Notes: generated from the letters alone by a model not told the origin. Positions 3,900-60,317 are shown, numbered from the stretch's first letter. The stretch: DNA of 64,000 nt from Candidatus Bathyarchaeota archaeon (GCA_963807605.1 CAWECG010000003.1:736001-800000); one strand, 5' to 3'. Numbers and translations are program-made.

Positions 3900-4161
3900 T
3901 CTACGTAGGAGTGCACACTATTCGATTGTAAAGTCGCGTTATACGACGGTTTCGCGCGCTTCACTTCCGCTTGTAGTGTTGATTACCTGAGATGGAGACG
4001 ATTGATCAGTTGGCCTCCGCTTTTTCTTAAGGACGAAAACCCCGGCGAGCGCGCGCTAAAGTAATAGGACCTTACCATTACTTGATCACCGCCAAGTTAT
4101 AGCTTGAAGTTGGAAAGAAGGGCATGTGACGAAGACCGGATACTGCAGTCAATGTTTGCGA

Positions 4162-4644
4162 TCAAATATCTTTATACATTACGACCATGTGCCTGCCCGG
4201 ACCGTTGTAGTCCTTCACGGCTTTGACGCCGTCTAGATCTATCAGATCTCCCTCTTCAGAGAGTTTGAAACCTAGATTATGATGAAAGCTTAATGAATGC
4301 TTGTTTATGGGGTTAATTATCAAGCAAGCCTTGCGACAGCCCATTTTACTCACAACTTCAAAGAATCTGTTGTAGAGGTCTGTCGCAATCTTCCTTCTCC
4401 TCATCTCAGGAATGACGCATACGTCGTGTAGGTATGCTATGGCGGAGTCCAGCTGTGAGACCCATCCAAGAAGAAAGCCCACAATCTTGTCCTCATCTTC
4501 CGCTATCAGACAAGTATTGGCGAAATATCTTGTGAGGTCATGGTAGATGGAATCTCTTTCAACAGGCATTGGTGCACAGCTGGCTGCGATGCCCATTATT
4601 TCCAGAAAGTCTTCCTCTCGCACGCTTCTAATTCTTATCGTCAC
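4162..4644 (-). CDS. GNAT family N-acetyltransferase
   Basis: V.PEMRRRKIA acetyl-CoA motif, N..S..FH..LGF, C-terminal DYNGPG. Confidence 0.85.
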   Translation of the reverse strand: MTIRIRSVREEDFLEIMGIAASCAPMPVERDSIYHDLTRYFANTCLIAEDEDKIVGFLLGWVSQLDSAIAYLHDVCVIPEMRRRKIATDLYNRFFEVVSKMGCRKACLIINPINKHSLSFHHNLGFKLSEEGDLIDLDGVKAVKDYNGPGRHMVVMYKDI

Positions 4645-4782
4645 CAGGGAGAACCTCCAAACTATTGCACAGATAATTAGCCGGTCTCTACTCTAAACTG
4701 ACTCGTAAAAAGAAGTAAGAGACACGTTTTCTTTAGGCTTTCTACTTTCTAGGCGCGCTAGCTATCGCTTATAGCCGACAAT

Positions 4783-4965
4783 TCAGAATAACATGAAGAA
4801 TAGTGCCGAAAAAACTAAGGAAATGATAGCCGTAAAACCTGTACTGAAAGAGTTTACAAACTCGTTATTCAGCGCGCGCGCTTTCCTCAAAAACTCAGCC
4901 ACACCGATCACAAGAAAAACATAAAAAGTTAACGCGATGCCCAGAATATCTCCCAGATAATCCAT
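4783..4965 (-). pseudogene. Internally deleted membrane protein: phytol/dolichol-kinase-like N-terminus joined to a DUF92-like C-terminus
   Basis: N-term ..VIGVAEFLRK and C-term LNNEFVNSFST.. joined through an AGCGCGCGCGCT run at 4871-4882. Confidence 0.55.
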
Positions 4966-5079
4966 GCGATACGACCCCTTTTCTTGTCAAGAAAAGCATG
5001 ATCTAGGATCTTACATTAATGTCAAACCCTGCTCACTCTTTGGTGATCTCGCTGTTGACGCCCTGATAATGGAGGCTTC

Positions 5080-5676
5080 TTATTTTAGGTAGAGTTGTAT
5101 TTGCAAAAGCGTTAATCCAACAGTTAGTAGCGCGCCTGCTGCCACCTGGTTCAGGTCGTGTGCTCCGAGTTTGAGCCTAGCCCAGCCGATAGGAAAAATC
5201 AGCGCAAAAAATGGAACCATTATTGCTCCGAGCTGGAGGAGTAGAAAGGTAGCTGGACCTGTCAGTCCTGAAGCGTGTATACTTATCTTCCATGTCTGGC
5301 TTATCATCATCATAACAATAGAGTTGACTATGTAACATGCCATCAGAGCAATCAAGCTTTGGGGCGCTTGGACGATTACGAGAATGATTATACCTGCAAC
5401 GCAGCTGGCGATTGCTGCGATGAACGGTTTTGTACGTGTTCTTCTGTCCGACGCATACATATCCGGAATAATGCCTCTCTTCACCATAAGGCGGATCATG
5501 ACAAGTGGGAAAAAGCATGCAAACACTGAGGTTATGACTAGCAGCAATAACGTCGAGGAGGGGTGGATGGAGAGGATGAGAATTGTAAATGCGTACAATG
5601 CGGTGAAGGGCGCGTTGAAGACTGCCGATATTGCTTCAGCAATTCTCACTTGTGTATCCTTCAGATCGATCCACAC
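5080..5676 (-). CDS. PAP2-like membrane phosphoesterase
   Basis: WKISIHASG and WARLKLGAH..QV motifs, multiple TM segments. Confidence 0.75.
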   Translation of the reverse strand: MWIDLKDTQVRIAEAISAVFNAPFTALYAFTILILSIHPSSTLLLLVITSVFACFFPLVMIRLMVKRGIIPDMYASDRRTRTKPFIAAIASCVAGIIILVIVQAPQSLIALMACYIVNSIVMMMISQTWKISIHASGLTGPATFLLLQLGAIMVPFFALIFPIGWARLKLGAHDLNQVAAGALLTVGLTLLQIQLYLK

Positions 5677-5820
5677 GCATTGCAGTATGTCCTTTGAACC
5701 GGATATGGTTCGAGGCTTTTCTCTCTTTCTTCAAGACTGTTTTAATCTGCTACGAAGACAGACTTAGCTCTAGATTCCTCAGACCATGATAGTAGTGAGG
5801 TGGGCTAAATGCACGCGCTT

Positions 5821-7185
5821 TCATAGTCTGCTTGGGGCAGGGGATATGAATCCCTCTTTCTCCAGTACTTTCAATGACTTCTGATATTTGGATATCCGAC
5901 GCTCGGCGCTTTCTCTCAAAGCCTCGAAGCCTAGTTTCACTCTGGCTAGTCCAGTGTCCACTGCGGCTTTTCCTACGGCAGCCGCCACTCTTGGATACAG
6001 GGCTGAGTTCGCCATTGAAGGTATGATAATGTCCTCTCTTAGGCCCTGCTCTTTAGCACATTTCGCTATTTCATGAGCCGCTGAGAGCATCATAGCTGTG
6101 TTTATGCCTCTTGCTCTTACATCAAGGATGCCCCGAAAGACCCCTGGAAAGGCTATTGAGTTGTTGACTTGGTTAGGATAGTCTGGTCGTCCTGTGGCAA
6201 CTATCTTAGCTCCAGCTTTCGTTGCTTCTTCTGGAAGTATTTCTGGTACTGGATTGGCCAAGGCGAAGACTACCGGTTTATCGGCCATCATTGAGATCAT
6301 GTCTCCAGTTATCACTCCTGGTCCGGGTTGGGATAGACCGATAACTACATCCGCCCCCTTGAAGGCATCGTGAATTCCACCCTTGACTCCTTTCTTGTTT
6401 GTTATCTTAGCCATTTGAGCCTTGTATTTGTCCAGATCTCCTCTCTCATCATAGATGACCCCCTTGCTATCTACCATAAGGATATTTTCAGACTTGACTC
6501 CGGCTTCGATCAGTAACCTTGTTACGCCTATGGCTGCGGTGCCAGCGCCAATGACAGTGACGCGAAGTGCACTCAGCTTCTTTCCTACAACTTCTAGTGC
6601 ATTCAGTAGACCCGCAAGGACGACTATGGCTGTTCCCTGATAGTCGTCGTAAAACACGGGGGTTTCCAGTTCCTTCGTTAGTCTTTCAAATATGTAGAAG
6701 GACTTTGGGGCATCTATATCCTCTAGGTTGATTCCGCCGAATGATGGTGCAATCCATTTAGTCGCCTGCACTATCTCATCCGGGTCCTGTGTTGAGAGGC
6801 ATATCGGGAAGGCGTCAACATCGCCTAGGTATTTGAAGATAAGAGCCTTGCCCTCCATCACCGGTAGCCCAGCCCTTCCAATGTTACCGAGTCCCATAAC
6901 TCTCGAACCATCTGTGACGATAGCGACCATGTTCCCTACGTTAGTGTACTCGAAAACTTTCTCCGGATCCTTTTCAATCTCTTTGCAGGGATCAGCTACC
7001 CCCGGGGTATACCACACTGCAAAGTCTTCAAAAGACTTGACTGGAACTTTGGATGTTATAGCCAGCTTTCCTCGGTAGAACTTATGCCACTCATTCGCTA
7101 TCTTTCCATAGGGTTTGGACATTGCCTCTTTCATCAAGATGTGATACTGTGCCCCTTGATATCTTTCTTCTGGACACACTGACAT
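5821..7185 (-). CDS. NAD(P)-dependent malic enzyme
   Basis: YTPGVA, VMEGKA, GGINLEDI, GAGTA, ALANPVPEI, PNQVNN motifs; true start may be slightly downstream. Confidence 0.93.
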   Translation of the reverse strand: MSVCPEERYQGAQYHILMKEAMSKPYGKIANEWHKFYRGKLAITSKVPVKSFEDFAVWYTPGVADPCKEIEKDPEKVFEYTNVGNMVAIVTDGSRVMGLGNIGRAGLPVMEGKALIFKYLGDVDAFPICLSTQDPDEIVQATKWIAPSFGGINLEDIDAPKSFYIFERLTKELETPVFYDDYQGTAIVVLAGLLNALEVVGKKLSALRVTVIGAGTAAIGVTRLLIEAGVKSENILMVDSKGVIYDERGDLDKYKAQMAKITNKKGVKGGIHDAFKGADVVIGLSQPGPGVITGDMISMMADKPVVFALANPVPEILPEEATKAGAKIVATGRPDYPNQVNNSIAFPGVFRGILDVRARGINTAMMLSAAHEIAKCAKEQGLREDIIIPSMANSALYPRVAAAVGKAAVDTGLARVKLGFEALRESAERRISKYQKSLKVLEKEGFISPAPSRL

Positions 7186-7319
7186 TGGCCGTTGGGATCT
7201 CTGTCATCAGATTCACGTCATTCGACGAGACACAAGATCCGCCGTAGGGGAAAAGACGCAAAAGTGAAGTCTTCAAGCCATTATTGCTTGGTTTGGATGA
7301 TTATGCACGGCGCGTTCTT

Positions 7320-7454: not shown

Positions 7455-7550
7455 CAGATAATTCAGCTAAAATCCTTGTTCATAGTTCGCCAGAATCTCC
7501 ACGAAGAGCCGTAGCCCTCGATCTCACGGGCTAGCATGATCATTGTGGAG

Positions 7551-11127: not shown

Positions 11128-11359
11128 AGCTAGGGACACACACAGACAAAAAATAGTCTGCTCTAACGGTTCAAATTAGGGTGATCTCACTAGCTAGGGG
11201 GGATAGAATCTGGCTGTTTTGTGTGCTCACGTGGATGCTGGTTTTTTGACGTGGACATCCACATGGACATTTCTGGAGTGAATAGCGCACGATCCCATTA
11301 CTTAAGACCAAGATCCACAACGGATTTATTGGAACTTAGGCATTTTCTGTCGACGGTAC

Positions 11360-19559: not shown

Positions 19560-19561
19560 CA

Positions 19562-25115: not shown

Positions 25116-25338
25116 TTCATGATGCACTGGGATTTTGGAGAATCTTCTGATGTGCTCCTATCAAAGAGATTAAAGAACAGCATCAAGACTCCTTTATGGA
25201 CTTCTTCCGTTCAAGCGTTCTTGTCCTGATGTAAGCCCGCGCCACCCCATGGGGAGGTGCGGGATGTATGATCGCCCGCTAGGTCACCATGGCAATGACC
25301 TGTCAACCAACTGCCATTGTATTAGTATGTGCGGGAGT

Positions 25339-25869
25339 CTATTTGACAGATACTTTATGTTTCTTTGTTTCGGTCGGTATCTTCTTCGGAACTCTCACTT
25401 CAAGCATTCCGTTATTTAGCGCCGCCTCTGCCTTGTCGGGTATGACTTCTTCAGGAAATGTTAGATTTCTGTGGAACCGAGAGTATCCACGCTCCTTGCG
25501 GACGTACCCCTCCTTCTCTTCATCTATCTTTGTCTTGGTTTCGGCTGATATCTCAATGCCTTTGGGTGTAACGGTTACGTCGATTTGCTCCTTAGGTACG
25601 CCTGGCATCTCAGCAGAAACTCGGTACTCCTTGCCAGCATCGATCAGATCTGCAAAGGGCTCTCTGACATCAGGTAGTTCAAACCAGGGGAAAGCGATCT
25701 TCGGCCAAGTGGAACGGATTGGGATCAGCATAGAGTCAAACCGTCTCCTGAATTCATCGACCATCCCGTCAATCTCACCTAAGAACTCGGAGGGTCTCCA
25801 AGGAACAATCTCGCCCTTTCCTACCTCCTCCTTCTTCTTAACGGAAATCTTCTCCTTTTTAGCAACCAT
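25339..25869 (-). CDS. Small heat shock protein Hsp20
   Basis: AEMPGV.KEQI, ER.YSRF.R, A.LNNGMLEVRVPK; AGGAGGTG RBS before the ATG at 25869. Confidence 0.93.
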   Translation of the reverse strand: MVAKKEKISVKKKEEVGKGEIVPWRPSEFLGEIDGMVDEFRRRFDSMLIPIRSTWPKIAFPWFELPDVREPFADLIDAGKEYRVSAEMPGVPKEQIDVTVTPKGIEISAETKTKIDEEKEGYVRKERGYSRFHRNLTFPEEVIPDKAEAALNNGMLEVRVPKKIPTETKKHKVSVK

Positions 25870-26170
25870 AGTTTCACACCTCCTTTCAATAGAGATTGTA
25901 TTGGCGATTACCAGATTCGCCACGACTAGGTATAATGTGCGGCGGCATGTAAATCTAACTGCAACTGAGTAGACTTCAGCCTGAAGCTATCAACGCCTAA
26001 AAAATGTCTACCCCAAAGTTATTCTGCACCATCTCGATAGTCTGACCAGCCCAGCCAATAGAACTCGTGGCGGTTTTCAGTTGACTGAGTTTGAGACACA
26101 TGTGAAACAAATCATTCAACGTACTTACAAGCGCGCGCTAACCAACATAATTACGCAAACAAGAAATCCA

Positions 26171-26839
26171 TCATTCTTCTTCAAAATTCGATATATCCAC
26201 AAACCAGTGATCGTTACGTTGAATTATTCCCTTATTTACTAATTTAATTCGTTGTCTGAATAGTGGTCCATTCGTAACGAAGGTGTGATATTCTCCGTTC
26301 TCTCCACATGCATCTATTCTCTTACTTTTTAGATATTCAAGAAACTCTCTATCGATGTTGTGACCCAGCCATTTTCTTTCAATCAGGTTCGATTTTGCGC
26401 TCAGAACCATGGCCTCAAAGCCTGAATCTAAGAATCCTGTGAAAATGTCTTCTGTATTTATCTTCCACAAGGGTTCCAATGGTTCAACTCCGATCTCGCT
26501 GCAGACTCTTTCAACCCAGTCTCTGTGTTCTTGAAGATATATGTCCCCGAACACCATTCCTTCGACTCCTTCTTCAACTAGACTCCCGACAGCTTCTTTG
26601 AATTTTTCTTCGTAATTGTTCCTAGCAGTCTCTTTTTGTAATAGTGAGATATGCATTGACTTTGCTTGTTCGGCAACTAGATTTGGAGTTCCATGAAACG
26701 AGACGCGTCTGTATTCTTGAGAGATGAAATTGACCAAGTAGCTAACCTTATGACCTTGCTGGACGGCTTTGTAGCAGGCGAAACAGCCATCCTTACCGCC
26801 ACTCCATGATGCAGCGACTATCACGATCCCAGACCTCAA
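26171..26839 (-). CDS. Diphthine-ammonia ligase family PP-loop ATPase
   Basis: SWSGGKD, FGDI, PLW, CGENGEYHTFV. Confidence 0.88.
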   Translation of the reverse strand: MRSGIVIVAASWSGGKDGCFACYKAVQQGHKVSYLVNFISQEYRRVSFHGTPNLVAEQAKSMHISLLQKETARNNYEEKFKEAVGSLVEEGVEGMVFGDIYLQEHRDWVERVCSEIGVEPLEPLWKINTEDIFTGFLDSGFEAMVLSAKSNLIERKWLGHNIDREFLEYLKSKRIDACGENGEYHTFVTNGPLFRQRIKLVNKGIIQRNDHWFVDISNFEEE

Positions 26840-27295
26840 TTCTTAGTACTGCCTTGTTGAAATGCGGATTATAAGCAGTAAGATATTCAATAGATTTACG
26901 CAGGTGTCCCCCAAGAGAATGATGAGATCGAAAGATGGCATATGGCCGTCAAGAGCAACGAAGAGCTTAAAGCGATTGCTGCTCGTGTTGCCTTGCAGGC
27001 TGAAGCATCTATGCGAGACAACAACAGCACACTGAGTATGTTAGATAGGCGCAGAATCATATAGCTTAGCAATTCTTACAAGTAGAAGCGAATAACCTTT
27101 CCAACGATCGACTTCACGTCAAACCGAGTCTCCGACAACAGTTATACGGTCTGACCGGCCTGACAACCCCCATTCGTAACTATGTTTTATAACCGATTAG
27201 AGCGATCTATATTCGATTAGTAACATAGGTCGCGTAGACATCTTCACTCCAATTCACAAAGCCATCCGTTAGCGCGCGCTAGGAAGATATGTCGA

Positions 27296-28072
27296 ATGGC
27301 TCAAAACATAGATCCGGTATATTTTCTTCAGCCAGTCATCACAGTTTTGTTCACCGTCGCCCTTGTTGTTTATTGGCACTACAGACGGAGTTTCACAAGA
27401 GGTGTGCTCATCTATTCTGCTCTTGCATATGTTGGGGCGATGGCGGCCAAAGTGATTGTCCAAGTCGTGACATTCGGTGCCTTCCAAGCACGCTTCAGCG
27501 ATAACGCCGCAGTTCTTGGAACTTACTTCGGGGCTCAAACAGTGCTCTTCGAAGTTGGTGGAGCATTCTTGGTGGCGGTATGGGCAGTTTCTCGAGCCAA
27601 AATGAACGCTAAGGACGCTGAAGGCTATGGACTCGGCCTCGCAATGTGGGAAAACGCGGGTTACTTGGGAACTCTCGGGTTAGTTAGCCTGATCACAATT
27701 TATGTGGTGTTGGCCTCCGGCAGCCCGGTTACACAAGAATTCTATTCGAGCCTGATCAGCACTCGGCCCGACCTCTTCTATCCTCCGTCGCAAGCTTTAC
27801 CCTTGATCGGATACGCCTTAATGGAGCGGGTGACCTCGCTTCTATTTCATTTTTCTTGGGGATGGCTCTGCCTTCTTGCAGCATATATGCATAAGAGATT
27901 CTATTTTCTGCTAGCTTTGCCGATGGGTTTAGTCGACTTCCTAGTGCCGTTTGCAGCTAGTCTCACAATTCCAGTTTTTGAGATGCTAATCTTTGTCCTT
28001 GGGTTATGTGCTTTAGCACTAACTTGGGCTGTCACAAGGAACCTACGAGATGGTCCTTTAAAACAAGACTAG
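27296..28072 (+). CDS. YhfC-like intramembrane glutamic protease
   Basis: Multi-TM protein, LFEVG, YGLGLAMWEN, ER..SLLFH. Confidence 0.7.
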   Translation: MAQNIDPVYFLQPVITVLFTVALVVYWHYRRSFTRGVLIYSALAYVGAMAAKVIVQVVTFGAFQARFSDNAAVLGTYFGAQTVLFEVGGAFLVAVWAVSRAKMNAKDAEGYGLGLAMWENAGYLGTLGLVSLITIYVVLASGSPVTQEFYSSLISTRPDLFYPPSQALPLIGYALMERVTSLLFHFSWGWLCLLAAYMHKRFYFLLALPMGLVDFLVPFAASLTIPVFEMLIFVLGLCALALTWAVTRNLRDGPLKQD

Positions 28073-28132: not shown

Positions 28133-28253
28133 GTATGGCGCGCTGAGGACATATGCCACTGTAGCTCTCCTGGAAAGAAAAGACATCGCATCCGAACAAT
28201 CCCCTATCAGAAACAAGCCTGAAACCTCTCAGCCCGGTCTTTAGCGCGATCTC

Positions 28254-30404: not shown

Positions 30405-30848
30405 TCATTTACTGACACGCTCTTCTGATGATTTCAACAAAATCAGAGTCACAGGGTCTCCGACTCGCAAACCACTATGAACATACTCCTCCCTAGACAG
30501 AACCCAGTTAACCTCATTGGAACCTCCATTCCGTTGCTGATTAAAGGGATTACCCACAATCATTATCTCCATCAAGCCGGATATTCCTCCTTTGTTGATT
30601 GGAGAAATTATCGGTCTTTCTTGATCAGGATTTTCTTGGTCAAGTTCTATGATTACTAGAAACTTCAGATCGTTTTTTAATGTGACCACTTTGATTGTTC
30701 CAACCTTTTCTATTTGCGTTGTTCTTCTACCTCTTGTTCCATATCTTTCATATAGTCGAAGGCAGCCACCAAACTCTTCAGCTTTCTCCTCCTTCTGGCA
30801 GTACGCCCGCTTGAAATCTTTTGTCCACAGAAGAAGATTCTTCAGCAT
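30405..30848 (-). CDS. Hypothetical protein, start uncertain
   Basis: C-terminal LSREEY..SGLRVGDPVTL pattern. Confidence 0.45.
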   Translation of the reverse strand: MLKNLLLWTKDFKRAYCQKEEKAEEFGGCLRLYERYGTRGRRTTQIEKVGTIKVVTLKNDLKFLVIIELDQENPDQERPIISPINKGGISGLMEIMIVGNPFNQQRNGGSNEVNWVLSREEYVHSGLRVGDPVTLILLKSSEERVSK

Positions 30849-31222
30849 CTGGCACGAATATCGCTACCGTTATTCCAAGTACCCCTGCTATAGCTGCTAA
30901 CGTCAGTTCCGTTTCTTGCTAGGTCTGCCGGTGACTTGCCCTCTAAGGCCTGGTGTGGTCTAACACGGTTGTAGTAGATGTTCTGCATCGAGATTATTGG
31001 CGTCTCTTCCTTCTTCAGTCCACGCATAACCTTCTCCCTATCCCTCTTCGTGCCGTGTAACCGTTCGATGATGTTGTTGTTCATGTCTCCTGCAAGTCTG
31101 ATGTGCCTAATATGTTGAGTTCTCGGAGTCTTCATGGTGTAGAATTCCTTGTTGAAAGCGTTCTTGTATGCGTATAAGCCGTCAGTTACAACCTTCTCTG
31201 GCTTATTAGCATTGGGCCCCAT
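30842..31222 (-). pseudogene. IS6-like DDE transposase C-terminal fragment
   Basis: VTDGL.AY, NNIIERLHGT.RDREKVMRGLK, YYN.VRPH.AL.GKSPA. Confidence 0.8.
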
Positions 31223-31380
31223 CGGTTTTTTTGGAGGCTTGTTTGAGTAAACGGCCGAAGTATTCTCTCGAACACCACACCAGTGATAATAGCGGGGATC
31301 AGACAGGCCAATTACCCGAACAAACCTTAGAAAGCCTCATTCATTTGACCATAGACCGAATTGGACGTCCACGCTGCCGA

Positions 31381-31702
31381 TTAAGTCCCATCCCGAAGAA
31401 ATCGTTTCAAGGCTTCATTATCATCAGCCTGCTTGCGAATTATCTCTGGCAGTTGCTTCTCGAATTCTTCTATCATCATTCTCACCATGCTTTCTAGAGA
31501 TCGAGGGTCTTTCTGCATTATGTTCTTCCGTGAATAACTGTGTACTGTCTTGAGGAAATAGGGATGAAGCTAGCTTCTCTCGACCGAATCTTCGCAGAAT
31601 AGTCCCAACTTTTCTGTGTAAGGAGGGTGGGAAGCCAAGACACCGTACTCTATCAGAACTCCGGAATTGGTTACATATTCGATGCGCCCCCGTCGCGCGC
31701 GC
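31381..31702 (-). pseudogene. C-terminal remnant of a TIR / nucleoside-deoxyribosyltransferase-like protein
   Basis: Manual translation RRGRIEYVTNSGVLIEYGVL...; internal TAG at 31570-31572; 5' end cut at a (GC)n run. Confidence 0.5.
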
Positions 31703-32074: not shown

Positions 32075-32089
32075 TAATGCAGCATATTC

Positions 32090-33168
32090 TGCTGTGTTGC
32101 ATGACTAGACATTTTTGTTTATGGATGTAGGTTTGAGTTTTCGGTTTATTGACGTGGAAGTGGTTGGATGATCTATATTGCCTGTGAGAGAACTATTCCA
32201 CGATTGTGATTGGCTGCTAGAGATTGGAGACGCATCAATGAGGGTCTCGTGAAGCGTGGGGAGATCCTGCTTGACCCACGCATCCTTGACAGGTGGAACA
32301 TTGAGCTTGAAAAGATGAATACTGGGAAGGAAGGTGGACAATACGTCTACCCTGAGATCTTCATCAGGCTTCTAGGCTACATGCACCTGCTATTCCACCT
32401 ACCCTACAGGCAGACAGAAGGATTCCTCAAAGCCCTGAGAAGATTCGACTCAAGGATCCATGTGCCTGACTATTCAACCATAGATAGACGCGTGAACAGG
32501 TTAGATGTGAAGCTGGATGAGAAAGATTATGGCGACGACATAGTCCTGGCGGTGGACGCATCAGGCATCAAGGTGGCTAACCGCGGCGAATGGATACGCC
32601 ATAAATGGAAGGTGAGACGCGGATACCTCAAGATCCATATCGCCGTTGATGTAAAGCGGAAGAAGATACTCGCCTTGAAGGTGACGGATGAGAAGACAGG
32701 TGACGGAGGGATGCTCCAGCCGCTTGTTGATGAAGCCTCCAAGAAAGGTAAGGTCGCCAAGGCAATTGGCGACGGAGCATACGATATGAAAAGCAACTTC
32801 CGCTATCTCAACGCAAAAGGGATTGAGCCAGCCATCAAGGTGCGCAAGAACACATCCAGCAGGGCCGGAGGATGCATGCCCAGAAAGCTCGTAGCCCAAG
32901 AATACCTCAAAGACCCTGAAGCCTGGAAACACAATCATGGCTACGGGTATAGATGGATGGCTGAATCAGCCTTCTCATCGCTGAAGCGAACCTTCGGAGA
33001 ATACGTCTCAGCCAAAACGATGCAAAACATGGCACAGGAGATGATGATCAAAGCCTCACTATACAACATGCTGATAGAAACAACCACAGCAACACACGGC
33101 TAGACGAAACCTGAAGACAGCCAACAAAAGCGAAAAACATCACTGAAACCTAGTCGCGCAACACAGCA
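32090..33168 (+). mobile_element. IS5-family insertion sequence, complete
   Basis: 19-bp TIRs TGCTGTGTTGC(AT/GC)GACTAG with 2 mismatches; 8-bp target duplication GCATATTC at 32082-32089 and 33169-33176. Confidence 0.92.
32210..33103 (+). CDS. IS5-family DDE transposase
   Basis: LPYRQTEG, PDYSTI, AVDASG, KIHIAVD, GDGAYD, Y..RW.AESAFS..KR. Confidence 0.93.
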   Translation: MAARDWRRINEGLVKRGEILLDPRILDRWNIELEKMNTGKEGGQYVYPEIFIRLLGYMHLLFHLPYRQTEGFLKALRRFDSRIHVPDYSTIDRRVNRLDVKLDEKDYGDDIVLAVDASGIKVANRGEWIRHKWKVRRGYLKIHIAVDVKRKKILALKVTDEKTGDGGMLQPLVDEASKKGKVAKAIGDGAYDMKSNFRYLNAKGIEPAIKVRKNTSSRAGGCMPRKLVAQEYLKDPEAWKHNHGYGYRWMAESAFSSLKRTFGEYVSAKTMQNMAQEMMIKASLYNMLIETTTATHG

Positions 33169-34857: not shown

Positions 34858-34908
34858 TCAAAACCAAGAAATGATCTACGCGATTTGTATTTAAATATAC
34901 CAGTAAAT

Positions 34909-35065
34909 TGGTGCGGGGAGTGGGATTCGAACCCACGAACCCCTACGGGACAGGAGTTCTGCTGCGCAGGTAGGACCTCAAAGATGGCCGGATGCGCATC
35001 CTCAGTCCTGCGCTTCCAAACGCCGGTTTCGCCAGCGTACTTTGACCTGGCTTGGCAACCCCCGC
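34909..35065 (-). tRNA. tRNA-Leu(GAG) with two introns (26 nt in the D-arm, 43 nt at 37/38), CCA encoded
   Basis: Removing both BHB-type introns gives an 88-nt Leu cloverleaf with a long variable arm. Confidence 0.9.
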
Positions 35066-35303
35066 TTTCCAGATCACATCTAGAGGAGTATTTTATAGTG
35101 TTTTTCGTTTTTGCCATGTGTTTGTTGCGGGTTCAGGATCTGACTATATAATGAGTGCGTAGTCGCTTCTTCTCTTAATCACGTGCGCGTAATCGATGCT
35201 GGGTGAATGTGCTATAAAATTAATAGAAGCGATCAGCAAGGAGAAAGTTATACTTAATCCCGTTAAGTAAGAATAGAAGACTAAGAAGAAAAGGGGCTGA
35301 AAG

Positions 35304-35828: not shown

Positions 35829-35943
35829 AGATGGAGCCTACGGCTAACCCAGATACCTTCTGTTTTCGTCCTTCTCTTGGCGACTACAGCTGTGAATACG
35901 ACTACGATTAGTCCGTCTAATTCTTAGACGCGGGCGAATATTC

Positions 35944-46970: not shown

Positions 46971-48248
46971 GTGATAACATTGTCCGAAGGATCAGCTCTG
47001 CTCAGAGATGTCCTATCTAGAATGGATGAAGCCGCTACTAGACTGAAGATCGATTGGAATATCTACAAGACCCTAAGGACTCCACGTACCTCCCTTACAT
47101 TCACGTTTCCAATAAAGATGGACAACGGCTCCGTGGAAATGTTCACTGGATACAGAGTACTCTACAATTACGCAAGAGGACCGAGCAAGGGTGGTGTACG
47201 ATACCATCCGGACGTCAACCTTGATGAGATTACGGCGCTCGCAGCTATCATGACGCTAAAATGTGCCGTGGTAGGAGTGCCTTTCGGAGGAGCCAAAGGC
47301 GGAGTAGCGTGCGATCCACGTAAGATGTCAATCGATGAGTTAGAACGGCTAACTCGAAGATACACCTACATGATCCTTCCTATTTTGGGGCCGGAAAAGG
47401 ACATCCCGGCACCAGACGTTAACACAAACCAGCAGACTATGGCTTGGATGATGGATACGTACAGCATGCTCACAGGTCACACAGTATTGGGGGTTGTGAC
47501 AGGTAAACCGTTCCAATTGGGCGGATCAAAAGGAAGAAGCTACGCGACAGGAAGAGGAGTTGCATACACAACTTCAGAGGTATTAGACCACCTGAACATC
47601 CCGATCAAAGATACCAAAGTCGCCGTACAAGGCTTTGGAAATGTGGGCTCAAACACAGCAAGATTCCTACACGAAGATGGCTGCAAGATCACAGGCGTAA
47701 CCAGTCTCAGCGGAGGAGGACTCTTCAATGAGAATGGACTGGACATACCCGCCCTCCTCGAACATGTGAAGAACAAGGGAACGATATCTGGATTCAAAGA
47801 CTGTGAGTTTGTCACTGATTACCAAAAAGCAAACGAAAGACTCTTGAAATCAGAAGTGGACATCTTGATTCCGGCCGCACTTGAGAACCAGATAACGGAG
47901 AAGAATGCAGCAGAAGTCCGCGCGAAAATCATAGTCGAGGGTGCAAATGGCCCCACAAATAGCCTAGCAGATAAGATACTGGCTGAAAAGGGAAAAGTAG
48001 TCGTCCCGGACATAGTTGCAAATTCTGGAGGAGTCATAGTCTCCTACTTCGAATGGGTTCAAGACGTCCAAGCGTACCTGTGGACCGAGGACCAAGTCAA
48101 CCAGCGATTGAAAGAAGTGATAACAGAGGCGTTCAACAGGGTCTGGGACATGACTGAGGAATACAAGACGAGTATGCGCCGTGCAGCCTATATGGAAGCT
48201 GTTTGGAAGGTCGTCGAAGTAACCAAGATGAGAGGAATCTTTCCTTAA
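46971..48248 (+). CDS. gdhA: Glutamate dehydrogenase
   Basis: GPSKGGVRYHP, GGAKGG, DIPAPD, QGFGNVG, EGANGP, SYFEWVQ. Confidence 0.95.
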   Translation: MITLSEGSALLRDVLSRMDEAATRLKIDWNIYKTLRTPRTSLTFTFPIKMDNGSVEMFTGYRVLYNYARGPSKGGVRYHPDVNLDEITALAAIMTLKCAVVGVPFGGAKGGVACDPRKMSIDELERLTRRYTYMILPILGPEKDIPAPDVNTNQQTMAWMMDTYSMLTGHTVLGVVTGKPFQLGGSKGRSYATGRGVAYTTSEVLDHLNIPIKDTKVAVQGFGNVGSNTARFLHEDGCKITGVTSLSGGGLFNENGLDIPALLEHVKNKGTISGFKDCEFVTDYQKANERLLKSEVDILIPAALENQITEKNAAEVRAKIIVEGANGPTNSLADKILAEKGKVVVPDIVANSGGVIVSYFEWVQDVQAYLWTEDQVNQRLKEVITEAFNRVWDMTEEYKTSMRRAAYMEAVWKVVEVTKMRGIFP

Positions 48249-48684: not shown

Positions 48685-48778
48685 AGCCCGGTAGTGTAGC
48701 GGACAAAGGATCGTTTCCGTCTAGGCATAGCGGGCTTTGGACCCGTTGACGGGAGTTCGAATCTCCCCCGGGCTACCA
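48685..48778 (+). tRNA. tRNA-Gln(TTG) with an 18-nt D-loop intron (48707-48724), CCA encoded
   Basis: AGCCCGG/CCGGGCT acceptor, GCGGG-CT-TTG-GA-CCCGT anticodon arm; BHB removal gives 76 nt. Confidence 0.92.
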
Positions 48779-50374: not shown

Positions 50375-50764
50375 ATGCTGATTAAGTTTGTAGAAATCTA
50401 CTGCGGTAACAAGCATGAGTCACGTCATAAGAGTCAGTGGAGTTCCGTTGGTGGAGATGTGGAAGGGAAAGGAAATGATGGATCTCAGCTCTGTCAGGAA
50501 TGCCGCGAACTACTCGACTACTCCATTATGAGGCGAAGACTGTGCCCTTTAGATCCTAAGCCCATGTGTAAGAAATGTAAGATTCACTGTTATTCCAATG
50601 AGTATCGGTCAAAGATTAGGGATGTTATGAGATTCTCGGGAACGACCCTTACATTCTTGTTAAGTACTAATTCTGTTAGATTTTGTACCGAGTATTTATT
50701 GAGCCGTTTGTCTAGGTGGTTGAATGGCATGATGCGGGGACTCAAGTGCGTCTCTGATTTTTGA
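50375..50764 (+). CDS. YgbA / nitrous-oxide-stimulated-promoter family protein, C-terminus probably scrambled
   Basis: IYC..KH, LC.EC.ELL.Y...R...CP..PKP.CKKC.IHCY, IRDVMRFSG. Confidence 0.75.
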   Translation: MLIKFVEIYCGNKHESRHKSQWSSVGGDVEGKGNDGSQLCQECRELLDYSIMRRRLCPLDPKPMCKKCKIHCYSNEYRSKIRDVMRFSGTTLTFLLSTNSVRFCTEYLLSRLSRWLNGMMRGLKCVSDF

Positions 50765-50915
50765 ATGATTTCCTAGTATTTCTTGAGGCTAAACCTCAGT
50801 TTGCCGGCTTGAGTTCTGATGGGTTGATTTGGTTTCAGAAGAGGGCTGTTCGTGAGTTCGTAAGTATGTGTTGCTTATGCTTTGCAGTAGTATGTTCAGC
50901 AGAAGCCAGCGCGCG
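50690..50915 (+). pseudogene. Decayed N-terminal fragment of an integrase-like gene
   Basis: Frame-broken pieces FLNDFLVFLEAKPQFAGLSSDGLIWFQKRA and LQ*YVQQKP, ending at GCGCGCG. Confidence 0.4.
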
Positions 50916-51004: not shown

Positions 51005-51748
51005 TTATAGGCTCTTACAGCGTGTTCTATAGCTTCTGTTCTTTTCCCTTGCTTGATCGAGAGATCTAGCAACATCATATTCCTTTCTTGCCTCTGAAAG
51101 GGCGGGTTTCTCATCCGAAATTTCAACGAGTTGACCTGCGAGAAGAAGTATTTCGTCTAAGAAGGTGTAGTTTAGGTAGGGGAGTTTTTCATAGTGTTCC
51201 ATCCTGTCTCTGTATCCTTCAAATCGTTTTCTCTCTTTAGAAAGTTCAGCTAGACTTCGTCCAGATTGGGCGACAGTCTCTAGCGCATTTTCAAAATTGA
51301 ATCTTGACACGGGCGTAGGGTCTATGCCTCTAATCTGTCTGTGGTAGAAGAAACGGTAGAGAGTCTGTATAGCAGAGCATAGACCTATTCCAGTGTTCCC
51401 AGCTACTGAGATGCCTAACCCATATTTTCCTTTGACATCGCAAATCTTCACGGTGTCCATGTAGTTTTTAGTTAGACCATTTATGCTGCCCCAATAGACG
51501 GGTGCACCCATGACGTACGCATCAGCTGCCTCCCATAAACTGTTTAACTTATCAGGACAACTGACTTCCTCGGTGTAGAATGGAACCTTGTAATCTATTA
51601 AGTAGACTTTCTCAGTTTCCACACCAGTCACTTTCGCACCCTCCAAGCATCTGGTGACGAGTTGGTCAGTCAGCCTGCCTCTTCTGGGGCTCCCAACGAT
51701 TCCAAGAATCATTCTTACCACGACATAGATATGTGTAACATAAATCAT
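51005..51748 (-). CDS. Flavodoxin-like NAD(P)H-dependent FMN reductase family, possible C-terminal frameshift
   Basis: GIVGSPR, GAPVYWG; alternative-frame tail IKQGKRTEAIEHAVRAYNLL. Confidence 0.8.
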   Translation of the reverse strand: MIYVTHIYVVVRMILGIVGSPRRGRLTDQLVTRCLEGAKVTGVETEKVYLIDYKVPFYTEEVSCPDKLNSLWEAADAYVMGAPVYWGSINGLTKNYMDTVKICDVKGKYGLGISVAGNTGIGLCSAIQTLYRFFYHRQIRGIDPTPVSRFNFENALETVAQSGRSLAELSKERKRFEGYRDRMEHYEKLPYLNYTFLDEILLLAGQLVEISDEKPALSEARKEYDVARSLDQAREKNRSYRTRCKSL

Positions 51749-52688: not shown

Positions 52689-52899
52689 TTAGTATTATCT
52701 CCATCGCCGTAGAAGCGCGCGGTTGAGTGCAACTTCTCTCGCTTCTCAGTTAACGTTTCTAGCACATAAGATATACCGTATTGCAGATTCCTCGATGCTT
52801 AGACCAAAAACAATTAATCATATCCCCAGATTCAACTTGGCAAATTGCATTCGGTATACGCGAAGACAAGGTTCGGTTGGATAATCCTACTTGGTTTAG

Positions 52900-54063: not shown

Positions 54064-54555
54064 TGCATATGTGTGCACTCAAAAATTCAGCTAAGGAAGA
54101 GGGAACTAAGTTTTGCATCAATTGTAATGCATGTCCCCCCTAAGGCGACCTTCTCTCTAGGATGTGGAGCGAAAAAATTAACCCAGGATTAGTGCGCATT
54201 TGGGATGATTGAATTCCACTGCCAAACACTACCTTGTATGAATCCAGACGTTAGAAGTAACATGTTCTGTTTTCAATGCTGTAAAACCCAGTAGCCACAT
54301 TCTAACTTCACATTCCAATTGGACGCTTTATTATCTGCGGAGTGCGAGAGAATGAAAGACTCGAAGGTTATGAAACCAGTTCAAATGGCCCTTATGTTCT
54401 ACAAAACGCAGAAAGATGCACGCGCGTAGAATCTGAACGCGCCTCGCTGATTCACCGAAACCAATTCACAACGTACGCTCACCAGCTGGCGGGCGCTGAC
54501 ACACACTCAATGCTTATTAGCGATAGATCCTAATTCCATGACGAGCTGACTTTGC

Positions 54556-55229: not shown

Positions 55230-55742
55230 ATGCCCCTAATGAAAAAGAGGGTAATCCTAGGAGTAGCCATTATTCTGTTTTCGATCTTTCTTGCGACTTT
55301 ACTACTAAATCCCTTCTCGGTAAAACCTAAGCCAATGACTCAGGAAGAAAGAGAAGCCGATCAGTCAGTACTGGTCTACTATGAGACTCTACGCAATGTG
55401 ACTATGCCAGATCAAATAGATCACATTGTTCAACTATTCACTAACGATTCGGTTATCACTGCTCCAGATGGAAAAATATACAGTGGTACAGAAATGATAC
55501 GACAGTTCTATGAAGACCGAGTGCGAGGTGTATTCCAGTATGACATCAAAGCCGATCTTTCTGAGGTCACAGTTAGTGATGGCACAGCCACAATAGTCTA
55601 TCATACTAAGTCCGTAGCATGGGTTCCTGGCTGGTCTAGTACCACTATAAACCCGCCTATTCATGTTCTTCTTGAGAAATTCTTGTTGGTTAGAGAAGCA
55701 GGTGTCTGGAAGATCGCTGCACTAGTGATGCAAAGCGAATAA
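55230..55742 (+). CDS. Membrane-anchored NTF2/SnoaL-like protein
   Basis: N-terminal TM, LFT.D.....PDG....G...IR.FY, GVWKI. Confidence 0.75.
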   Translation: MPLMKKRVILGVAIILFSIFLATLLLNPFSVKPKPMTQEEREADQSVLVYYETLRNVTMPDQIDHIVQLFTNDSVITAPDGKIYSGTEMIRQFYEDRVRGVFQYDIKADLSEVTVSDGTATIVYHTKSVAWVPGWSSTTINPPIHVLLEKFLLVREAGVWKIAALVMQSE

Positions 55743-55903
55743 TCTTGACGTTGCATTGCTAATCCATTCGGCTCTCGCCGAGAAGGCGCGCGCTACCGCT
55801 TGCCCAACTCGAAACAACATATCAAGCAATGAGTTACGCGCGGGCATCAGCCAATCTCAGTTTTATATGGTTCGTGGTCTTCTTTTCTGGTGGAGGCAGC
55901 TGT

Positions 55904-56257
55904 ATGAAAGTGATTAGAATAGACGAAGTTGCAGCAGAGAGACATACCGGAGGCTTATTTCTAGGCACCGCGGAGTTGAAAACACTCGTCGGTGAGTCAA
56001 CAGGTGCTAGGGATCTAAATGTATCCATAGTCGCCTTCCCACCTGGTGTAAAAAACAAACCTCACGTACATATGTACGATCAAGCGCTCTATATACTGTC
56101 AGGCAAAGGCGTAGTCGCTAATGAAAAGGAAGAGATAATCGCAGAGCCCGGGATGGTTTTCTTCATCCCAGGAGGCGAGAAGCATTGGCACGGTGCAACC
56201 AAAGAGAATTCGTTCTCGCACATATCAATCATGAGGCCGGGCAAGACTGAGTTCTAG
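55904..56257 (+). CDS. Cupin domain protein
   Basis: H.H..DQ.L..LSGKG, P.GEKHWHGA; GGAGG RBS. Confidence 0.9.
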   Translation: MKVIRIDEVAAERHTGGLFLGTAELKTLVGESTGARDLNVSIVAFPPGVKNKPHVHMYDQALYILSGKGVVANEKEEIIAEPGMVFFIPGGEKHWHGATKENSFSHISIMRPGKTEF

Positions 56258-57063: not shown

Positions 57064-57104
57064 GGATGTATGGCCGGTGTCGTGTCTATTTGTGAAGCTC
57101 CTCA

Positions 57105-58195
57105 TCATTCGCCGACCGGTTGTAATCCTTTTTCCGTGCGTTCGAGTTTGATCGTCCAGTAAGGTGCGAACCCCTCAAATTCATCAGATGTCGCTCGTAC
57201 TTTGATAGTCAGGCCCTTTGAGTCGAATTCATACACCGAATAGCAATTTTTCCCTATTATTCCGAGATCCTCTCTAACGACACCACTGCTCCCAGTTCCA
57301 TGAACTGCAAGAGATTGAGATGATTGATATTCGTTGTTCTTCGGAGGTCGAGAGATACAAGATACGAACGGTTGATGACGATGACCATGCGAGACTATGT
57401 CGACATTCAATTGCAGTGCCTTGTACATCAGCTGTCCCGCGTCCAAAGTCAGATCATAATTCCGGCTCAGTGTCGTTATTTCTTCTACTGGTGTGGCTGG
57501 GATAAGATGATGATGCATTGTCATGATTCTATACATTACACGTTGTCCGTCTACCTTCCAGTTGAGCGAGCTGGCGGCCTGTTCAAGTTGCTCTAGACCC
57601 ACAAACCCGTAGCCTGCGAATTGCCGGTCTTCTAGCCGGGTTGAGTTTAGCCCCAGCACATCAACTGTAACGTAATTGCTAAGTAAGTATCGGCGCCCCA
57701 ATGTGAGATGCTGGTTCGGAGGCAATCCGAACGCTGCCAAGAAGAAATCAACATAGTTCTTCTGCGCGACTTCGCTTGAGAATTGAACAGGCTTCTCTGG
57801 ATCGTACTTGTCATCTTCCTGCTCAGCCCATAGAATATCGTGATTACCAGGCACAACGATGAGATCATAATAAGGGTCCAGTTCAAAGATGGTCCTTAGC
57901 GTTGACGCGCGCGCGTGCCAATCGGATCCTCTGTGTCGGATACTTTGATGTCTTTCACTTTTGCTCTGTACGTCAGATGTTTCCCGCTATCCAGCAAGTA
58001 GACGACTAATGGCTCAGTCGTGCGAGCGGTTGTCGTGAAATCTGCAAACACGGCGCGCGGAATCTTTTCTTTGGGAAGTGCCCACCATCCCCACCAAACG
58101 TAACCGTGTTGAGTGATTAAATCTCGGTGCAGCTTTATTGTGAACCCTAGTTGGGTAGCAAGATCTCGGAATCTCAACACCATCGATGTCGGCAT
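57105..58195 (-). pseudogene. WWGWW-domain plus metallophosphoesterase gene with an internal deletion
   Basis: N-part LRFRDL..VWWGWW (57896-58195) and C-part VPGNHD/HHH/HGHRH lacking the first motifs, joined out of frame at CGCGCGCGCG (57906-57915). Confidence 0.7.
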
Positions 58196-58324
58196 TAATC
58201 CTTACCTGTTTAGAGCGAGTAATGACCTGCTGTCAGCCATCTAGCGCGCGCTAGGGTTAGAGATGTCTTTTCCATATGGCTATTGGTGCCACATTTCAAA
58301 TAAGCATTGTCAGCACACGTCAAC

Positions 58325-59212
58325 CTAGCTACGCACGCATACTTTCTGCCGCCATACTAACCCGCACACAAATCGGGGGCAGTACAGATTTTTCCGGTAT
58401 CGATCGTACTTCATACGCTTCCCACAGTTAGGGCAGTTGAAGAAGCCCTCCCAACCGCAGGTCAAACCATCCTGGCAGGAGAAAACCCCAGATTTGGTAT
58501 AGATCAGCTTGCTTCCGCAGTCTGGGCATTCATATTGGGGTGGGTGGTCTTCCATCCACCGTTTGGCTTGTGGTTTTCCCGATTGTATATTCTCGTAGGC
58601 CAACCAGCCGTCAACTTTCTGAATAATGTCCTCCCCCAAAGTTGGGAAGGCGTAATTCGGATAATGCTCCACATTGTATTCCCTGCGGTCTTTGTAGTCG
58701 TCAGCGGTCAATTCTTTGTGCATGAATTCCTCAAAAGTCAATCCAAGTCGTTGCAGGTGTTGCCTTATTTCGCCCAGTTTTTCAGGGGCTTCGGATAGAA
58801 CCTTCTCCACGAGCCCTAGCATTTTTGCTCGGTCATGCGACGCCTCATATTCTTCGAGTATTCGCTGGAATTTCCAGGCTTCACGTCGATGATGATCCCT
58901 TTCCAGCTCGGTTAGGTATTTCGCCTTTGCAAGCTCCTCTAGATTTGTTGCTGTTTTGACTTCAATCTTCAACTTTTCAAGCTCTTCGTCTGTGGGAGTC
59001 TGCGAGGCCTCTGCTTTGGATTCTTCTTCCTCAGCTTTCTTGAGCTTTTGAAATTGGCGGAATATCGTTGACTTTGGCGTGTCAAGCTTTTCTGCAAGAG
59101 ATCTCAACGAAGCGAGCCCTGCCTTCCATTCTAAGTAGGCCTTTCTCAACTTGTTCTCACCTGGTTGGAAATTTGCGTCATTGAGTCCCGTACTTCGTTC
59201 AAGGAGAGTCAT
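58325..59212 (-). CDS. HTH, coiled-coil and double zinc-ribbon protein (MGE-like)
   Basis: SLRSLAEKLDTPKSTIFR HTH; CPDC and CPNC. Confidence 0.7.
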   Translation of the reverse strand: MTLLERSTGLNDANFQPGENKLRKAYLEWKAGLASLRSLAEKLDTPKSTIFRQFQKLKKAEEEESKAEASQTPTDEELEKLKIEVKTATNLEELAKAKYLTELERDHHRREAWKFQRILEEYEASHDRAKMLGLVEKVLSEAPEKLGEIRQHLQRLGLTFEEFMHKELTADDYKDRREYNVEHYPNYAFPTLGEDIIQKVDGWLAYENIQSGKPQAKRWMEDHPPQYECPDCGSKLIYTKSGVFSCQDGLTCGWEGFFNCPNCGKRMKYDRYRKNLYCPRFVCGLVWRQKVCVRS

Positions 59213-59234
59213 GTGATCACCGTTAATTCAAGAC

Positions 59235-59770
59235 TATTTAGCTATTTCCAGTTCATTTATAAGGCTTTTTGAAGTAAAAATGAATAATAAAGAGTAATAT
59301 GTTGAAATAAATAAGAAATCATTGAAATAATCAACAATCATGAAAATAAGCACTTCTTAAATTAAGGAAAGATGAATTCCCAAAAAATAAACAGGGACAA
59401 CCCGTTCGTGCATACACTGACAACCGCATCCGTCTGTAGGCTGAGGGAGGGAGACAAAGATTATCGGGGCATGTTCGACTTTTGACGGAACGTGCGCAGC
59501 TATTCTTTCTTGGAAGTGGTTCCCCACAGAATTCAAAAGGACACACTGATTCCAGATTATCAGCACGAATCAAGGTTGCACATACACGTAGTGGAGCACT
59601 ATGACCCCCACTGGGACAACCGGGACAATGAGGACAATGGGACACTAGAATCTGATGGAAAATCGGAGTCTTATGTATTGAAAAGATTTTTTGAATCATC
59701 TAAAAAAGTACTTGGGACACGTGAAACATGTGGAACATGGCAGGACATGTCAAAACAGAATGGGACATAA
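59235..59770. repeat. AT-rich tract followed by two clusters of (G)GGACA repeats with 8-10 bp period
   Basis: AT-rich 59235-59390; GGACA at 59614, 59623, 59632, 59640; RRRACA six times at 59714-59767. Confidence 0.65.
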
Positions 59771-59813
59771 GGCGGCTTAATCAGAGAAAGAAGCCAGGAA
59801 CGTCAAGGTAATA

Positions 59814-60176
59814 GTGTTGCTCTTGGCTGACGAAACACAAAACAGAACGTACTCGAAAGGCCAGCTAAACAAGATTATCGACTCAGTCGTGCATCCCCTT
59901 TTCAAAAAAGATGCCAAATTCATCATAGTTGACAGCGCTCTCCACGCACTTGTCGAACAAAATCCCACCCTCTCGATAAGTAAATTCCTCAAATACAACC
60001 TCCAAGAGATTGTCCAACAAACAGTTGGAAAAGACAAACTCAGAAAAAAGAGAGTTGACAGCCTCATAAGACAGTTAAGGAAATTGTCTAGAGAATACCA
60101 GAGCATCCCAAGAAGACGCGTGCGTTCTGGCGGCAAAGCATCAAATGCCGCGCGCGGGTCGACAACCTCGACGTAA
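59814..60176 (+). CDS. Hypothetical basic protein
   Basis: 120-aa ORF with a (GC)n run near its end. Confidence 0.45.
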   Translation: MLLLADETQNRTYSKGQLNKIIDSVVHPLFKKDAKFIIVDSALHALVEQNPTLSISKFLKYNLQEIVQQTVGKDKLRKKRVDSLIRQLRKLSREYQSIPRRRVRSGGKASNAARGSTTST

Positions 60177-60221
60177 CTTTTTTTAAGATGCCACCAAAAC
60201 GAACATAACTGTGTTTAGACG

Positions 60222-60317
60222 ATGAATAATCGGACTGTGGCAGGGTCTCTCCTACTAGTCGGCAGCGCCCAATACATCATTAGTATGATTGTGGCGGAGT
60301 CTGTATACCGCGCGCGC
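60222..60317 (+). pseudogene. N-terminal fragment of a DUF998-like membrane protein
   Basis: MNNRTVAGSLLLVGSAQYIISMIVAESVY, then breaks at CGCGCGCGC. Confidence 0.65.

Follow-up and report, generated by a model that had tools for sequence, protein, structure and literature searches.

Why do short runs of alternating G and C lie where genes of an archaeal genome have been cut or joined? The question arises in a 64-kb stretch of an uncultured Bathyarchaeia archaeon (genome G000, 2.65 Mb in 5 contigs, 47% G+C). This stretch, G000:C3:736001-800000, is referred to as the window, and bare positions are counted within it. A sequence-only reading of the window had listed ten runs of at least 8 nt and eight of 6-7 nt, had placed at least five of them at broken genes, and had proposed that breaks are repaired by means of self-complementary GCGC tails. 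We find that the occurrence of GC runs at joints is real and undescribed, the homology between copies within the genome stopping precisely at run edges. Judging from sequence comparison, we assign a probability of about 0.5 to the reading in which the patch is written anew at particular, fairly rare break-and-rejoin events, mostly in non-coding accessory DNA.

Excess, form and placement of the runs

We defined a run as a maximal, strictly alternating G/C tract and took tracts of at least 8 nt as the main class. The window contains ten such runs of 8-10 nt, all correctly located by the sequence-only reading, and its eight runs of 6-7 nt were also found in place, together with four that it had missed (5130, 33411, 47919, and 58053). 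Its hand estimate of about 1 run of at least 8 nt per 64 kb by chance agrees with Markov models of order 0-3 (about 0.7), and the conserved block at 35.1-48.8 kb is, as it had claimed, free of runs of that length, containing only a coding CGCGCG at 47919. The run density of the window is unremarkable for this genome, which averages 7.7 runs of at least 8 nt per 64 kb. There are 320 in the 2.65 Mb of G000, about 17-fold above Markov expectation; GCGCGCGC was observed 298 times vs. 14-25 predicted, and CGCGCGCG 214 times vs. 12-25 predicted (Markov order 0-3, whole genome). The comparison with a Markov null and by coding status, which had been suggested as a check, returned a large excess that is mostly non-coding.

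The distribution of run lengths has a second peak at 8 nt (7 nt: n = 127; 8 nt: n = 198; 9 nt: n = 74; 10 nt: n = 36; 12 nt: n = 4) in place of a smooth decay, which is at odds with simple dinucleotide slippage. Alternating GT/CA tracts are also over-represented in G000 (5-8x); AT and GA tracts are not enriched. The base preceding the run is A in 247 of 320 cases (77%) and the base following it is T in 256 (80%). The next positions outward are T in 40% (left) and A in 45% (right), and there is no consensus further out. These A/T caps are kept at run lengths of 8, 9, and 10 nt and in both phases, so the unit is A-(alternating G/C, 8-10 nt)-T, of variable length, and not one fixed word. No consensus of more than 2 nt was found beyond the run on either side, which does not fit a repetitive extragenic palindrome/bacterial interspersed mosaic element or a miniature inverted-repeat transposable element (a unit of at least 20 nt with conserved arms, mobilised by a matching transposase).

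By a crude gene call, 279 of the 320 runs (87%) are non-coding, vs. only 22% of 4-nt GCGC sites. The runs are clustered, with 20% of 20-kb bins containing 61% of them, and are concentrated in the accessory regions of G000. Adjoining runs are of like form only slightly more often than expected (29 vs. 22, P ~ 0.05), a weak effect.

The excess, the fixed caps, the preferred length, and the intergenic placement would all suit a palindrome under selection for some function at gene borders (a HIP1-like element, an uptake sequence, a protein-binding site, or a terminator), duplications merely ending there. We nevertheless regard such an origin as quite improbable, because the breakpoints described below match the run edge to within 1 nt and do not simply fall within spacers, because the conserved 13.7-kb core block has no run of at least 8 nt, and because the runs of the sister genome (G001) are at other places, at the edges of synteny. 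Moreover, older paralogues have not kept the run, which decays by point changes, and C5 methyltransferases do not follow the motif. The HIP1-like system offered as an alternative by the sequence-only reading fails on coding distribution and on C5 methylase content.

Homology breakpoints at the runs

We compared each run and its 400-bp flanks with the rest of G000 and used 960 random non-coding sites as a control. Within-genome homology stops no more than 3 nt from the run for 74 of 320 runs, vs. 45 of 960 control sites, and spans the site in 2.5% of runs vs. 13% of controls. In a meta-profile of distinct ends of high-scoring segment pairs, 12 and 12 ends fall on the two positions immediately to the left of the run and 9 and 11 on the two immediately to its right, against a background of about 0.6 ends per position (maximum 4) in the surrounding 300 nt. 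Ends of homology are therefore about 14-18 times as frequent at the exact run edge as in the DNA around it. This enrichment rises with length, from about 4-fold for GCGC 4-mers to about 9-fold for 6-7-mers and about 14-fold for runs of at least 8 nt, and no breakpoint peak was observed in the same meta-profile for CTAG, GC-rich hexamer palindromes, or (GA)n. The sequence-only reading would have been refuted by runs no commoner at breakpoints than in intact genes; the breakpoints instead coincide with run edges to the base pair.

Of 144 alignments, 122 have a paralogue that is devoid of a GC run at the homology end, which argues that the run was added and was not a pre-existing microhomology. 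Homology mostly starts 0 or 1 nt past the run, the distribution tailing into overlaps of 1-4 shared bases, and the T cap is often absent from the source sequence. The source shares a 4-nt match at 6 of 85 breakpoints and the run itself at 10 of 85, so that two alternatives raised earlier, microhomology joining at pre-existing GCGC and cutting and religation at GCGCGC, fit only a minority of cases.

The window itself offers several worked cases (Table 1). The runs at 60149 and 60309 enclose the 152-bp fragment at 60157, the source of which has no run at either end, and the within-genome comparison found no collinear homology around the fragment. A 57-bp fragment is also enclosed by runs that are not in its source. 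The paralogue of the segment to the left of the 152-bp fragment stops 17 nt earlier than the segment does, at its own cap A-GCGCGCGC-TA, and has a further run at its other end; the two copies end at different points, each with a run, so that the same sequence was cut on two independent occasions. The run at 57906 is the deletion joint between two truncated genes, a Pua-like gene and a metallophosphoesterase gene, the latter having no homologue among the 16 relatives searched. Thus the claim that runs sit at broken genes stands for 57906 and 60309. It was not borne out at 4872, 31694, and 50909, where neither Pfam searches of adjoining reading frames nor within-genome tblastx revealed a recognisable broken gene ending at the run; the reading frame of the IS240-type transposase fragment near 31694 ends at 31336, short of the run.

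Two further cases are small replacements inside otherwise continuous paralogues that are 90-93% identical. At C3:74808, 5 nt (ATCAC) are replaced by the 8 nt GCGCGCGC, internal to a 500-bp fragment that has runs at both ends, and at C1:353532, 6 nt (ACCCTA) are replaced by the 10 nt CGCGCGCGCG. Eight runs have paralogues on both flanks, and the flank paralogues are at different, unlinked loci. In the sister genome, a 10-nt run (G001:C101:3089-3098) is found exactly where homology to window position 35943 resumes after a replaced segment, the adjoining 106 nt having no match in G000, and another run lies 21 nt before the start of the syntenic block. The two genomes are only 70-75% identical at the DNA level, so that spacers cannot be aligned between them.

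The same breakpoints could arise if the runs pre-existed as fragile or nuclease-targeted sites (e.g., Z-DNA-prone) that provoke breaks at their edges, one flank being lost or replaced while the run survives. Such an origin would explain why most fragments have a run at one end only, why a small share of all joints has one, and why the enrichment grows with the length of a tract that alternates purine and pyrimidine. The insertion of insertion sequence (IS) elements of the IS5 family into runs (see below) likewise marks them as reactive DNA, and the excess of GT/CA tracts points the same way. We nonetheless consider it unlikely, since it leaves the origin of 320 capped runs unexplained and does not accommodate the two clean replacements in continuous paralogues, the 152-bp and 57-bp fragments bracketed by runs that their sources lack, the unlinked loci of the eight two-flank cases, or the many paralogue ends without a run.

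Table 1 Runs of the window, the segments they adjoin, and copies of the two IS5-family elements (ORF, open reading frame)
Feature	Coordinates	Strand	Context
GCGCGCGC, then TAA	4049..4056		262-bp spacer of convergent ABC transporter gene (2064-3899 +) and GNAT acetyltransferase gene (4162-4644 -)
GCGCGCGCGC (10 nt)	4872..4881		Between GNAT gene and PAP2-like ORF (5080-5676 -)
A-GCGCGCGC-TAA	26131..26138		Spacer of convergent ORF 25289-25972 (+) and diphthamide-synthase-like gene (26171-26839 -)
TTA-GCGCGCGC-TAG	27272..27279		Divergent spacer, 26171-26839 (-) and 27296-28072 (+)
CGCGCGCGC (9 nt)	31694..31702		358 nt from IS240-type transposase remnant (30845-31336 -); about 390 nt from multi-copy IS (32088-33168)
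G-GCGCGCGC-TA	55786..55793		Between SnoaL-like gene (55230-55742 +) and cupin gene (55829-56257 +)
CGCGCGCGCG (10 nt)	57906..57915		Joint of 5'-truncated metallophosphoesterase gene and 3'-truncated Pua-like gene
CTA-GCGCGCGC-TAG, full 12-nt palindrome	58244..58251		Just upstream of Pua-like remnant, downstream of ORF 58325-59212 (-)
CGCGCGCG	60149..60156		Right end of segment 59609-60148 and left end of 152-bp fragment
C-GCGCGCGC-T	60309..60317		Right end of 152-bp fragment, where the fragment's reading frame is cut
GCGCGC	173..178		Upstream of ABC transporter gene
CGCGCGC	3953..3959		Spacer shared with run 4049
CTAG-GCGCGC-TAG	4753..4758		Spacer shared with run 4872
GCGCGC	28138..28143		Convergent spacer
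GCGCGCG	50909..50915		Between convergent YgbA_NO-like (50375-50764 +) and FMN reductase (51005-51748 -) genes, both apparently whole
GCGCGCG	52715..52721		Divergent spacer preceding MFS transporter gene
CGCGCG	54421..54426		Between MFS and FKBP genes
CGCGCG	55837..55842		5' edge of cupin ORF
GCGCGCG	58053..58059		Within Pua-like remnant, reads Pro-Arg-Ala; may be ordinary coding sequence
152-bp copy (91%) of G000:C1:426389-426539	60157..60308	+	Promoter and first ~30 codons of a gene
Segment with paralogue G000:C1:358449-358971 (94%)	59609..60148	+	
Pua-like gene remnant (PF24405, profile positions 1-91 of 176)	57899..58201	-	Frame enters run 57906 and stops there
Metallophosphoesterase gene without about the first 50 profile positions	57105..57854	-	Loss on the side facing run 57906
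First IS5-family element, copies	G000:C4:41593-42740, C1:381536-382674, C1:359514-360667, C3:246504-247639, C3:1079166-1080303, C5:37853-38975, C1:343588-344710		
Second IS5-family element, copies	G000:C1:531279-532398, C1:587483-588606, C3:162625-163747, C3:256822-257945, C3:458329-459450, C3:701716-702841, C3:1082185-1083306		

Other features of the region may be recorded here. A repeat of about 120 nt at 11136-11276 starts GTGTGTGCTCACCAGCT and contains TATAGATAACTGGCTGTTT. It has other copies at C3:187153, C3:586628, and C1:397038 and at least six more, and is also present in G001. GC runs truncate its copies at differing points, and the most over-represented 10-mers of G000 include words of this repeat. 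The region 57105-63182 has the look of a defence island in decay: SIR2_2 (62040-63182) adjoins DUF5677 (60422-61894), and the Pua-like remnant, the truncated metallophosphoesterase, and several small ORFs without a known family lie alongside. The conserved block has at its left edge 220 nt (34906-35125) that are 89% identical to G001 and have on the minus strand a tRNA-like end (T arm, acceptor stem, CCA) that neither ARAGORN nor Rfam called; this stretch may be a tRNA gene with an intron and a hot spot of integration. The right edge has a tRNA gene of 94 nt (48685-48778; Rfam 54.7 bits), to which ARAGORN assigns no amino acid and whose extra length suggests an intron. A solitary, casposase-like Cas1 gene (G000:C3:803495-804703) lies about 3.5 kb past the end of the window, among small ORFs without a Pfam match.

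IS5-family elements, relatives and candidate enzymes

Two IS5-family elements of G000 are bordered on both sides by (T)A-GCGCGC (copies in Table 1). The first is about 1.14 kb long and encodes a 355-aa DDE_Tnp_1/DUF772 transposase; five of its seven copies are near-identical. The second, also in seven copies, is about 1.12 kb long, and its transposase is 41% identical to that of the first and has one in-frame TGA. Every copy of the first has 3-9 nt of alternating G/C on each side and no other target duplication. The ends of the second read (T)AGCGCGC-(A/G)GGGTTGTCCCG, with TA flanks on both sides in most copies. Relatives of the first element in G001, G002, and G012 have the same kind of border, with no more than 4-5 nt of G/C in the motif-poor G012. 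The two sides together amount to 11-14 nt in G000, G001, and G002, except in one copy (9 nt). Such sums fit a 4-bp duplication on entry into a run of 8-10 nt, and we therefore read the elements as users of runs, which most likely serve them as landing sites. Other IS families of G000 have ordinary borders and duplications. One of them, the multi-copy element at 32088-33168 of the window (DDE_Tnp_1/DDE_Tnp_1_5), has at least seven near-identical copies with ends TGCTGTGTTGCATGACTAG, target duplications of 6-8 bp, and no GC runs at its borders.

It could be argued conversely that the runs are leftovers of IS5-family elements, either doubled target duplications or retained tips, and that IS-mediated deletions truncated the neighbouring genes. 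A GCGC duplication doubled within TA..TA would yield exactly TAGCGCGCGCTA, both families with seven copies each have the matching border, and neither has any other target duplication; the motif is patchy across genomes, as mobile elements are, and the runs sit in accessory, IS-rich regions. Several results make this distinctly unlikely. Pieces in GC phase give only even-length runs in GC phase, yet 9-mers (74) and CG-phase 8- and 10-mers (76), about half of all runs, are equally capped. GCGC is missing from the sources at most breakpoints, no flanking target duplications were found around solo runs in G000, and the 12-mers expected from re-insertion and excision number only 4. The 4-5-nt border in G012 fits a 4-bp duplication of a GC target, so that the IS uses runs and does not make them, and the ordinary borders of the other IS families also count against such leftovers. 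Finally, transposase does not follow motif abundance across genomes: G012 has nine transposase hits and only two motifs, and genera g3, g4, and g7 have 16-63 motifs and no hit, although IS copies are often missing from short-read assemblies.

Copies of the capped motif AGCGCGCGCT number 106 in G000, 119 in G001, and 16-63 in genera g2, g3, g4, and g7. Motif-rich genera (g1-g4 and g7) have 16-119 copies; g5, g6, g8, and the majority of the remaining families in the order have 0-5. Of 301 genomes of the class, about 20 are motif-rich, and these are spread over at least seven families. Patchiness extends to a single genus, which includes genomes with 83 copies and genomes with 1-10. This distribution also bears on whether the runs are an artefact of assembly or library construction, in which chimeric joins were filled by GC. 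Only the patchwork look of the DNA speaks for an artefact, and the probability is close to nil, given that the capped motif is abundant in some independently assembled relatives and absent from others, and that diverged paralogues have runs in common, runs erode through point changes, and IS elements have inserted into them. The assembly chimera that the sequence-only reading had listed among its alternatives is excluded by the same independent assemblies.

G000 encodes Ku, a LigD-type polymerase, and a ligase remnant in one cluster, as well as PolX. In this cluster, which is of the non-homologous end joining type (G000:C1:589618-592231), Ku has 266 aa and the protein with a LigD primase-polymerase domain 287 aa; of the adenylation domain, the ATP-dependent ligase ORF contains no more than the C-terminal portion. 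The 609-aa PolX (C1:345080-346909) includes a PHP domain and adjoins an IS5 copy. In the 41 genomes searched, Ku and LigD polymerase were found besides G000 in the motif-poor family f2 and in none of the remaining motif-rich genomes. The runs are not the work of the classical Ku/LigD route. Other candidates fared no better. Prim-Pol (PF09250) was not found in the family, and G000 has no reverse transcriptase (RVT_1); PolX (palm domain) is sporadic among relatives and does not follow the motif, nor does C5 methylase (PF00145); PriS is present in 38 of the 41 genomes irrespective of motif count; and a small primase-like ORF occurs also in the motif-poor f2. The correlation between motif and enzyme content that had been proposed as a check was therefore not observed for Ku, LigD polymerase, Prim-Pol, PolX, reverse transcriptase, or C5 methylase.

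Proposed origin and comparison with known systems

If the patch is written at the joint, each 3' end might first receive a short tail, A first and then alternating G/C. The tails, being self-complementary, would anneal, fill-in opposite each leading A would yield the T cap, and the nicks would be sealed. The tail could be written by an enzyme or copied by template switching from one of the hundreds of existing copies. Under such a scheme, runs of any length and either phase would keep their A and T caps, and 0-4 nt of microhomology would be left between run and fragment. Patches would come to lie where genes were truncated, along the edges of captured fragments, and sometimes, as a small replacement, within continuous sequence. 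What stands of the original proposal that tails are added at repair is the base-pair tie to breakpoints, the absence of the run from the paralogue, and the independent capping; what does not stand is the run as a general scar, and the enzyme was not found.

Several observations weigh against this origin. A breakpoint can be demonstrated for only about a quarter of the runs, 77% having no paralogue to reveal their history. Among distinct small indel blocks inside paralogue alignments, 2 of 199 have a run; 103 of 2796 paralogous alignments end at a run, and about 2% of all homology ends abut one. These low shares indicate a special, fairly rare event and not the general end-joining scar of the cell. 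Only about 8-10% of the fragments abutting a run have a second run at the far end, which would also fit a one-sided deletion from a pre-existing site; the same figure disfavours an origin in which fragments enter a run and duplicate it. No pair of strains before and after an event was obtained, a metagenome scan having found relatives at 69-71% identity only, and the exact DUF5677 protein of the window had no match among the contigs searched. In addition, no candidate enzyme tracks the motif among the relatives searched, the run sequence at the borders of two IS5 families makes a transposon-linked origin possible, and the scheme gives no reason why the added sequence is A(GC)n.

A narrower version, which we advance tentatively and with some doubt, is that a dedicated, horizontally spreading enzyme writes the self-complementary A(GC)n tail on broken 3' ends so that any two can anneal and be sealed. 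It would be a nucleotidyl-transferase or primase-like protein of an unrecognised family, possibly carried on a mobile element. This would amount to linker-writing end joining without known counterpart, leaving a readable record of past breaks.

Double-strand-break repair in Ku-less archaea is, to our knowledge, poorly understood, and in G000 a fixed, recognisable sequence marks a subset of joints. Were it written at repair, it would imply an enzyme activity not yet described, would serve in uncultured archaea as a natural tag of where DNA was once deleted, a gene truncated, or a fragment captured, and would allow a simple assay in which DNA is broken and a GC patch is then looked for. If the runs instead cause breaks, short Z-DNA-prone palindromes would be shaping accessory genome regions. 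For annotation, the patches flag pseudogene borders and IS5 landing sites.

Full-text literature searches on GCGCGCGC and on highly iterated palindromes in archaea returned no description of the motif. The highly iterated palindrome HIP1 (GCGATCGC) was first noticed bordering a deletion. In cyanobacteria it occurs within genes, is conserved in place, and goes with methylases that recognise it (PMC5861425, PMC4390886). HIP1 and the runs are alike in being 8-bp G/C-rich palindromes, over-represented tens to hundreds-fold and limited to certain lineages, and the runs share the excess that characterises HIP1 (298 GCGCGCGC vs. 14-25 expected). They differ in that HIP1 is abundant within genes, whereas 87% of the runs are non-coding, and in that HIP1 sites are conserved, whereas the runs are not conserved between genera, although the sample is small (none in the syntenic block of G000, and G001 runs at synteny edges). 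Furthermore, C5 methylases (PF00145), the one methylase class compared, do not follow the motif, and run copies arise by insertion and not by point change.

Excision footprints of Tc1/mariner elements and the 4-bp duplications of IS5 resemble the runs as short palindromic remnants flanked by TA, and two IS5 elements of G000 share the border sequence. Unlike such footprints, the runs include odd-length and CG-phase forms, have no flanking duplications, and adjoin segments whose sources are without GCGC at most breakpoints. The GC clusters of yeast mitochondria, which are 30-60 bp long and have sequence families and target-site features, are likewise G/C-rich palindromic insertions in A/T-rich spacers, polymorphic, tied to deletions and recombination, and of unsettled mechanism; the patch described here has only 8-10 nt.

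PriSL of Saccharolobus carries out terminal transfer, polymerisation across discontinuous templates, and microhomology-mediated joining (PMC3333859, PMC12019639). This is the nearest described archaeal mechanism, being independent of Ku and combining nucleotide addition at 3' ends with the annealing of short homologies, and the joints at the runs share 0-4 nt. PriSL joints have small, variable insertions and deletions with no fixed filler reported (PMC3333859, PMC12019639), and the terms 'palindrom' and 'filler' are absent from PMC12019639. PriS occurs in nearly all relatives, motif-rich or motif-poor, so that PriS alone cannot account for the patchiness of the motif. Joints made by Ku/LigD, TdT, or Pol theta also gain bases that come from neither parent, as filler DNA, N-nucleotides, or templated insertions; the known fillers are of variable sequence or are copies of neighbouring DNA. 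The runs resemble Ku/LigD joints in combining 0-4 nt of microhomology with a few added bases, but here the added bases are of a fixed kind, the filler always being alternating G/C with A/T caps.

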